A stretch of 60,569 bases of DNA, counting the filler, from Dugesia japonica (lineage: Eukaryota): assembly GCA_001938525.1 (NCBI GenBank). It is 5 parts of 5 records of this genome, joined end to end, with 100 filler letters (N's around TTAATTAATTAA, not from the genome) between each part and the next. Parts side by side here need not be neighbours in the genome. Positions count along the whole stretch, not along the records: positions 1 to 10,787 come from MQRL01176098.1; 4 more parts are not named here. One strand, given 5' to 3'. The translations under genes were made by a program, and so were the position numbers. Shown here in pieces: positions 8,765 through 8,906 of the stretch (within the stretch, counting starts at the first letter, position 1; every line of letters begins with the position of its first letter). The notes beneath the pieces were generated by a model that ran no database searches, was not told where the DNA came from, and saw only the letters and a program-made list of their open reading frames with translations.

Positions 8765-8906
8765 TCGTCACCTCATGTGACCTCTGTGATGCATCCGTTA
8801 GTTTCTAGGTGAAGTCCTTGTTTGAACTTCTGGTGAATAATCAGTTGCTTTGTTTATTTATGACTGCTATCATCAGATTCAGACAAGGCAAAAAGATGAC
8901 TGAACC
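8765..8906 (+). ncRNA. Conserved multi-stem RNA structure near the element end (copy 1)
   Basis: Stem CCTTGTTTGAA..TCTGGTGA / TCATCAGA.TTCAGACAAGG closed by GTCA/TGAC. Homologous to 20077-20214, with substitutions that preserve pairing. Confidence 0.55.

Follow-up and report, generated by a model that had tools for sequence, protein, structure and literature searches.

Two decayed retroelements of the planarian Dugesia japonica share a structured 5′ leader with a possible role in self-primed reverse transcription

The stretch of Dugesia japonica DNA analysed here (the window; 60,569 nucleotides of assembly GCA_001938525.1 in five joined parts) contains two copies of a structured motif of about 140 nt. 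Copy 1 (8767–8907) lies just inside the 5′ terminal region of one decayed mobile element (element 1, minus strand, 2148–9297) and copy 2 (20077–20215) occupies the equivalent position in a second (element 2, minus strand, 17125–20566), and neither copy is assigned to a strand as a whole. Judged from sequence and modelled folding, we tentatively suggest that the motif is a shared 5′ leader which could serve both the start and the finish of reverse transcription and which would be primed by the element's own RNA and not by a tRNA, a reading to which we give somewhat less than an even chance. The preliminary description of this DNA had seen in the motif a covarying RNA structure on the strand antisense to the element's genes, and had offered a packaging, replication or priming signal, or an unrecognised self-cleaving ribozyme, as its function.

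Two elements with a common 5′ block

The two copies of the motif are homologous, with BLAST aligning 8767–9169 to 20079–20478 at 71% identity over 413 nt (E 1e-42), and a gapped alignment carries the similarity on to a shared limit at 9297/20566 (score 364 compared with a shuffle maximum of 140). Because homology continues to this point, the motif is just the inner 140 nt of a shared block of approximately 530 bp found at the 5′ ends of both elements. Similarity between the elements drops at the first strand of the closing stem on the inner side and stops at an att-like end on the outer side, and the motif and its pairing partners stand out as GC-rich islands within an AT-rich region. The parts named in the preliminary description were all located where it had placed them: the closing stem at 8767/8895 in copy 1 and 20077/20203 in copy 2, the invariant 15-mer at 8772 and 20084, GAAGT at 8811 and 20121, and the long hairpin at 8816–8888 and 20126–20199. 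The invariant 15-mer is not beyond chance, as exact runs of at least 15 were found in 51% of simulated 413-column alignments at 71% identity.

No third copy was found in the window by pattern search (allowing up to three mismatches), BLAST, or a covariance model run without filters (next best E 0.7). The motif pattern was absent from the viral contigs searched and gave 13 matches in metagenomes, which is about the number expected by chance, and none of these had the hairpin or similarity to the window proteins. Protein-led scans found no relatives in viral contigs; in genome contigs one scan found none and others four generic gypsy RT loci without the motif. Word-indexed protein searches returned no match, and an upstream frame had no match in the Atlas. 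A literature search, with Repbase and most subscription journals outside its reach, found neither an LTR-less env-carrying gypsy element nor this motif, and among publications on ribozymes in chuvirus-env retroelements no paper with this motif was found.

Both elements have recognisable ends. On the minus strand, the 5′ terminal regions span 390 bp in element 1 (8908–9297, with an inner inverted repeat pairing 8968 with 9077) and 351 bp in element 2 (20216–20566, with an inner inverted repeat pairing 20277 with 20389), and the 3′ terminal regions span 136 bp (2148–2283) and 120 bp (17125–17244), respectively, with both ending in CCCAACA. The 3′ region of element 1 starts with TG after a purine tract and includes AATAAA at 2177, 29 bp from the left end. 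Putative polypurine tracts of nine purines followed by TGGA are found in both elements on the minus strand (2284–2292 and 17245–17253), at 136 bp and 120 bp from the left ends. The left end of each element reads TGTTGGG, accounting for two of the five such words in the window, and the right ends are the near reverse complement; compared with the integrase att consensus TGTTRNR..YNYAACA as given in PMC3601003, both 3′ ends fit at 7/7 positions and both 5′ ends at 6/7. As for a possible target-site duplication, four of five flanking bases match around each element (ATAAT / ATAAG for element 1 and AAAAA / AAAAT for element 2), in surrounding DNA which is AT-rich. Of 3579 windows compared, each left end matches the other best (102.5, with the next at 94.5 and a mean of 62); their local alignment is at shuffle level (34 compared with a maximum of 48) and was not seen by BLAST, and we therefore regard left-end homology as moderate. 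The coding-strand layout of both elements is thus att, 350–390 bp, the TGG site, the motif, the interior, the purine tract, 120–136 bp, and att.

Within each element, the left and right ends are no more similar than shuffled sequences in all four direct and inverted comparisons (scores of 36, 34, 47 and 33 against null maxima of 62, 47, 51 and 53), and self-BLAST found no direct terminal repeat in either element. On this sequence evidence both elements appear to be without paired LTRs; the loss of LTR parts from both copies is a possible alternative to ends that are truly LTR-less. A published survey table of GAG-ENV-POL errantiviruses calls an LTR or primer-binding site (PBS) for many members but for none of six Schmidtea elements, and its rows without either call include 8/9 for flatworms, 4/10 for bryozoans and 16 of 30 for nematodes (of a table total of 36 for the last; PMC13524379). 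As the filters described there (99% identity, a distance below 14 kb, flanks of 3 kb) could explain the uncalled LTR and PBS, we treat the pattern in this table as a lead only.

Element 1 is a decayed GAG-ENV-POL-type Ty3/gypsy retroelement with most of pol missing. On its minus strand the order is env, protease, CCHC knuckles and protease, with a gB/chuvirus-type env upstream of protease/pol. The env gene is a broken Monjiviricetes (chuvirus/gB-type) fusion glycoprotein gene at 4358–6028 (minus strand), matched in three pieces by PF24664 (E 2e-10, 7e-9 and 8e-7), which is above the curated cut-off among the 24 frames scanned. It is followed on the same strand by a decayed aspartic protease domain at 3205–3522 (E 1.7e-6 to the proteases of relatives) and then, at 2661–3197, by CCHC zinc knuckles and the start of a second aspartic protease (weak Pfam matches, E 0.013–0.1). 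We note that four CCHC-like knuckles can be seen between the two protease domains (2661–3522, minus strand). No RT, RNase H or integrase core was matched in element 1, and these are also absent from element 2; upstream of env, where a capsid (gag) gene was sought, the frames at 6050–8480 have no Pfam or Atlas match. Elsewhere in the window, a short fragment at 15014–15145 resembles the RT of the relatives (41% over 44 amino acids, E 4e-4).

A protein search of 1.84 billion representatives recovered 36 relatives of element 1. Of these, 13 were scanned: in four the fusion protein precedes RT, RNase H and integrase, in a further three it precedes proteases only, and one cluster member adds a fifth polyprotein with fusion protein, RT, RNase H and integrase. 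The GAG-ENV-POL arrangement with an HSV/gB-type env is known from nematodes, bryozoans and flatworms in the survey cited above (PMC13524379), and chuvirus glycoproteins have been reported beside gypsy fragments (PMC10084718). Several relatives (P0005, P0010, P0013, P0023 and P0038) have two, three or more domains of aspartic protease type after env, and P0038 (4844 amino acids) has ankyrin and C2H2 domains besides, while P0034 has a weak Bcl-2-like match before env. One env-pol polyprotein (P0017, HBK71150.1) and gypsy RT loci (L014–L017) are filed under bacterial MAG names, and these are likely to be eukaryotic contamination of those bins.

Element 2 has ends like those of element 1 and an unrelated interior, no coding sequence common to the two being found by tblastx, and is likely to be non-autonomous. 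Within it, 19342–19699 is a 60-bp tandem repeat (20-amino-acid period) without a Pfam match.

The window as a whole is AT-rich with many gaps, and intact long genes are absent under translation tables 11 or 6; a ciliate code for the window genes was rejected, long frames being absent and the genes simply decayed. Other features include an integrase gene of Polinton/Maverick-type appearance at 1581–2147 (plus strand; rve, E 0.008) which is interrupted by element 1, and, to the right of element 1, a repeat array at 9430–9752 with a CTACTATCTATCTACT terminus which we take to be a likely Polinton end. A near-perfect 76-bp inverted repeat (92%) at 20857–21024 has sub-threshold matches to miRNA families and is likely a MITE-like hairpin. 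The regions 29100–30750 and 36300–37100 are internally repetitive and repeatedly inverted, resembling long subterminal transposon repeats, and the tandem duplications of about 580 bp and 350 bp at 54128–56124 and 39354–39997 adjoin assembly gaps and are possibly assembly artefacts.

Primer-binding position and complementarity

A primer-binding site is expected immediately after the 5′ terminal region, and on the coding strand of both copies TGG directly follows this region (8907 and 20215). The putative sites extend over 8895–8907 and 20203–20215 (minus strand), and on the plus strand the copy 1 site consists of the 3′ strand of the closing stem plus ACCA. In element 1 the site is complementary to a candidate self-primer within the 5′ terminal region (9192–9227, minus strand), which pairs from the first base of the site over 14 bp (-18.7 kcal/mol) and over up to 27 bp (-30.2 kcal/mol). 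The value of -18.7 kcal/mol, obtained with the first 15 nt of the site and 9192–9208, was reached by 0/1000 dinucleotide shuffles; the partner stretch has ACCA at its end, facing the first base of the site, and the pairing was the best of 388 sliding probes, with 0/100 block shuffles equalling it for the best of 30 probes. The corresponding 15 nt of copy 2 give no more than -10.0 kcal/mol (325/1000 shuffles). The 9192–9208 core of the candidate self-primer is deleted in copy 2, and the copies pair with different partners. The five best of 386 probes for copy 2 begin 3–7 nt inside the site, and the shifted partner is a conserved GC-rich motif at 20389–20403 (minus strand) that pairs with the PBS-position region over 12 bp (-17.1 kcal/mol; 4/100 block shuffles), with its element 1 homologue at 9075–9092 pairing less strongly (-12.2 kcal/mol).

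Such long-range pairing is more stable on the sense than on the antisense strand (e.g. -30.2 vs -19.8 and -18.8 vs -14.9 kcal/mol). It should be read with the caution that we chose the self-pairing test once the site had already drawn attention, and that the paired parts are GC-rich islands: in block-shuffled sequences the best probe lay at most 5 nt from TGG in 15 and 24 of 100 cases. The exact Tf1 register, in which the first 11 nt of the terminus would be the partner of the site, could be adopted by copy 2, where it is weak and G-U rich (-10.0 kcal/mol), and we do not count it as support. Of the functions proposed in the preliminary description, a replication or priming signal is supported by the position of the motif just inside the 5′ terminal region with its TGG start, by its presence both in an env-carrying element and in a partner unrelated to it in coding sequence, and by complementarity to the element's own terminal region.

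An ordinary tRNA-primed leader would have the same position, with the TGG site as a degenerate tRNA PBS (likely Ser) and the 140 nt as a coding-strand packaging or dimerisation domain whose closing stem shuts the site until the primer binds. Non-autonomous partners usually retain ends, primer site and packaging signal, which counts for this alternative, as does the closing stem, which folds on the sense strand of each copy (mean pair probability 0.87 in copy 1 and 0.92 in copy 2). The best of the three tRNAs compared by script was tRNA-Ser, matching 9/12 positions at a 3′ end described as used by many errantiviruses; both copies, however, mismatch tRNA-Ser at two bases beside CCA, where the primer must pair, and the long hairpin on the sense strand has four A-C and one C-U mismatches and forms in one copy only (outer hairpin mean pair probability 0.12 in copy 1 and 0.82 in copy 2). 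The 12-mer of the site is absent among the 189 tRNA 3′ ends tabulated in supplement 1 of PMC13524379. On balance we consider tRNA priming of these elements unlikely, though it is the best of the alternatives to self-priming.

Structure and strand of the motif

The long hairpin is the part of the motif that favours the plus strand, and has RNA folding energies of -25.0 (plus) vs -17.6 (minus) kcal/mol in copy 1 and -19.9 vs -11.5 kcal/mol in copy 2, with DNA values of -10.5 vs -8.7 and -7.0 vs -4.5 kcal/mol, respectively (i.e. the plus strand of the isolated hairpin is favoured by 7–8 kcal/mol as RNA and by about 2 kcal/mol as DNA). The outer hairpin also forms on the plus strand in both copies (mean pair probability 0.97 and 0.81). 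The non-standard pairs of the shared hairpin are four G-U and one G-A on the plus strand and none on the minus strand, and there is an extra G-U on the plus strand within an inner stem that only copy 1 has. The closing stem behaves differently: its sole non-standard pair is a G-U on the sense (minus) strand, and on the plus strand it forms in copy 2 only (0.98, compared with 0.01 in copy 1). The earlier statement that non-Watson-Crick pairs are mostly G-U on the plus strand thus holds for the long hairpin and fails for the closing stem. An antisense RNA fold, which had been read from it, is suggested by the long hairpin only; the closing stem and the long-range pairings both contradict it. Whole-motif z-scores for RNA folding are modest and do not discriminate between the strands (-1.74 plus and -0.96 minus for copy 1; -2.25 plus and -2.33 minus for copy 2), and as DNA they range from -1.03 to -0.35.

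Pairing has persisted while the hairpin sequence changed, as had been claimed, in that 18/19 pairs of the 19-bp hairpin are retained across seven stem differences, more than expected by chance (simulated p 0.009–0.064 for the plus strand and 0.010–0.079 for either strand, varying with the transition rate). The covariation is thin, with pairing by hand giving one double-sided change, four one-sided changes and one broken pair, and RNAalifold run on both strands of a MAFFT alignment found a double-sided change in 0/21 pairs (plus) and 0/18 pairs (minus).

This result bears on a second alternative, that of a relic inverted repeat or DNA-level signal, in which the hairpin and its long-range complement would have arisen by template-switch duplications in the course of reverse transcription and have no RNA function, and the invariant stretch would be a transcription-factor site (it contains what we take to be an E-box and a nuclear-receptor half-site word). 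The single double-sided change and z-scores of about -1 to -2.3 fit this account, and it would accommodate both an invariant 15-mer for which chance suffices and a long-range partner that differs between the copies. It sits less easily with the retention of 18/19 pairs (p 0.01–0.08), with the tolerance of all five non-standard hairpin pairs on one strand, and with an edge of the structure that coincides with the homology boundary, and we judge a relic repeat to be likewise unlikely.

The plus-strand bias could also be explained by a self-encoded antisense primer, an antisense RNA of about 140 nt which would mimic a tRNA and prime on the site that encodes it, folding as a three-way junction with an acceptor-like closing stem and a 3′ R-ACCA tail. 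R-ACCA follows the closing stem on the plus strand in both copies, the hairpin G-U bias is on the same strand, and in the copy 2 fold the invariant bases lie clustered at a junction. Copy 1, however, forms neither the closing stem nor the junction on the plus strand (0.01 and 0.0), a promoter, processing site and transcript support are lacking, and ARAGORN found no tRNAs in the window; we regard such a primer as improbable.

The motif is likely a priming-site leader, and a self-cleaving ribozyme on the antisense RNA is very improbable despite the unpaired GAAG and the C right after the hairpin that are conserved in both copies, and the many retroelements which carry ribozymes. Rfam gave 12 matches in 1–25000 with none at the motif, and narrow Rfam scans (E up to 5–10) gave nine and five weak matches with none to ribozyme families. 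The HDV-like layout noticed earlier was not recovered using a relaxed descriptor on the plus strand, as 0/222 and 0/360 matches have the closing stem for P2 together with C8889/C20200, and the 5 and 23 matches that do use that C pair the 3′ strand in other registers. The hammerhead word CUGANGA occurs once, on the minus strand of copy 1 only, and the core words of hammerhead, twister and hairpin ribozymes are absent or single-copy. On the basis of Rfam, ARAGORN and core-word scans, tRNA, snoRNA and ribozyme families were rejected as identities for the motif.

Proposed mechanism and comparison with known systems

In the self-primed leader that we tentatively favour, the coding-strand RNA would fold back so that a 5′ terminal stretch with ACCA at its end pairs with the site that starts in TGG, and RNase H from the element's own pol would cleave behind the paired stretch to leave a 3′-OH primer. 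The long hairpin, which needs the G-T/G-U pairs of the opposite strand, would then fold in the first-strand cDNA, whose 3′ end would be the motif segment (the closing stem then R-ACCA) and may govern the second strand transfer. Element 2 might have retained just the cis signals, purine tract and ends, and have been mobilised in trans. Further points against self-priming are that the scheme accounts for no first strand transfer when a direct LTR is absent, that the site may conceivably be a degenerate tRNA-Ser one, and that RT, RNase H and integrase core are missing from element 1. Strand transfer and integration could possibly go through an intermediate that is circular or joined end to end and is opened where the att sites meet. 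The position, boundaries, homology and complementarity of the motif and the identity of the genes of element 1 are seen in the sequences, whereas the mechanism and the LTR-less architecture are inferred from two decayed copies.

A broader proposal is that the elements represent an env-carrying Ty3/gypsy lineage without paired LTRs, having unlike 5′ and 3′ terminal regions with att sites at their outer ends, self-priming, a tRNA-shaped 3′ end of the first-strand cDNA (or an antisense primer RNA) that would replace the usual tRNA primer and LTR-guided transfers, and a circular or end-joined intermediate, and this we consider doubtful. To our knowledge, integrase-encoding retroelements are regarded as needing both paired LTRs and a primer that is a tRNA (or of Tf1 type). 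If unlike ends and self-priming were true, they would constitute a new reverse-transcription route in animal envelope-carrying retroelements, and could explain the uncalled LTR or primer site in the high-copy flatworm GAG-ENV-POL elements of the survey table (45 and 215 copies). Otherwise, the motif would be an ordinary retroelement leader in two dead copies.

Among known systems, Ginger-type integrase transposons and VIPER/SIRE-type split-end retroelements have unlike ends, short terminal inverted repeats and no paired LTR, as here. Ginger transposons are without env, protease and primer site, and VIPER uses a tyrosine recombinase, unlike the relatives of element 1 which carry a DDE integrase. 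The HDV-like ribozymes of retrotransposons share with the motif a hairpin followed by C-A and the closing strand, but neither copy has a P1, P3/L3 and P1.1 consistent with the closing stem.

Tf1 and Tj1 are described as priming from a stretch at the 5′ end of their own RNA (PMC7175516, PMC4600332). As far as these accounts go, the Tf1/sushi elements have a primer site complementary to their own upstream terminal sequence, as predicted here for copy 1, and resemble those described here in an inverted repeat in the looped-out part, but Tf1 primes with the first 11 nt of its RNA and has normal LTRs and no env, whereas the partner here lies some 90–105 nt inside the end and is complete in one copy only. 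Finally, the GAG-ENV-POL errantiviruses of PMC13524379 differ in that the elements described here are without a direct LTR or a full tRNA match, have two protease domains with zinc knuckles between them, and have lost most of pol; as far as that survey describes them, they are alike in having a gB/chuvirus-type fusion gene before protease/pol, integrase-type ends and a purine tract.
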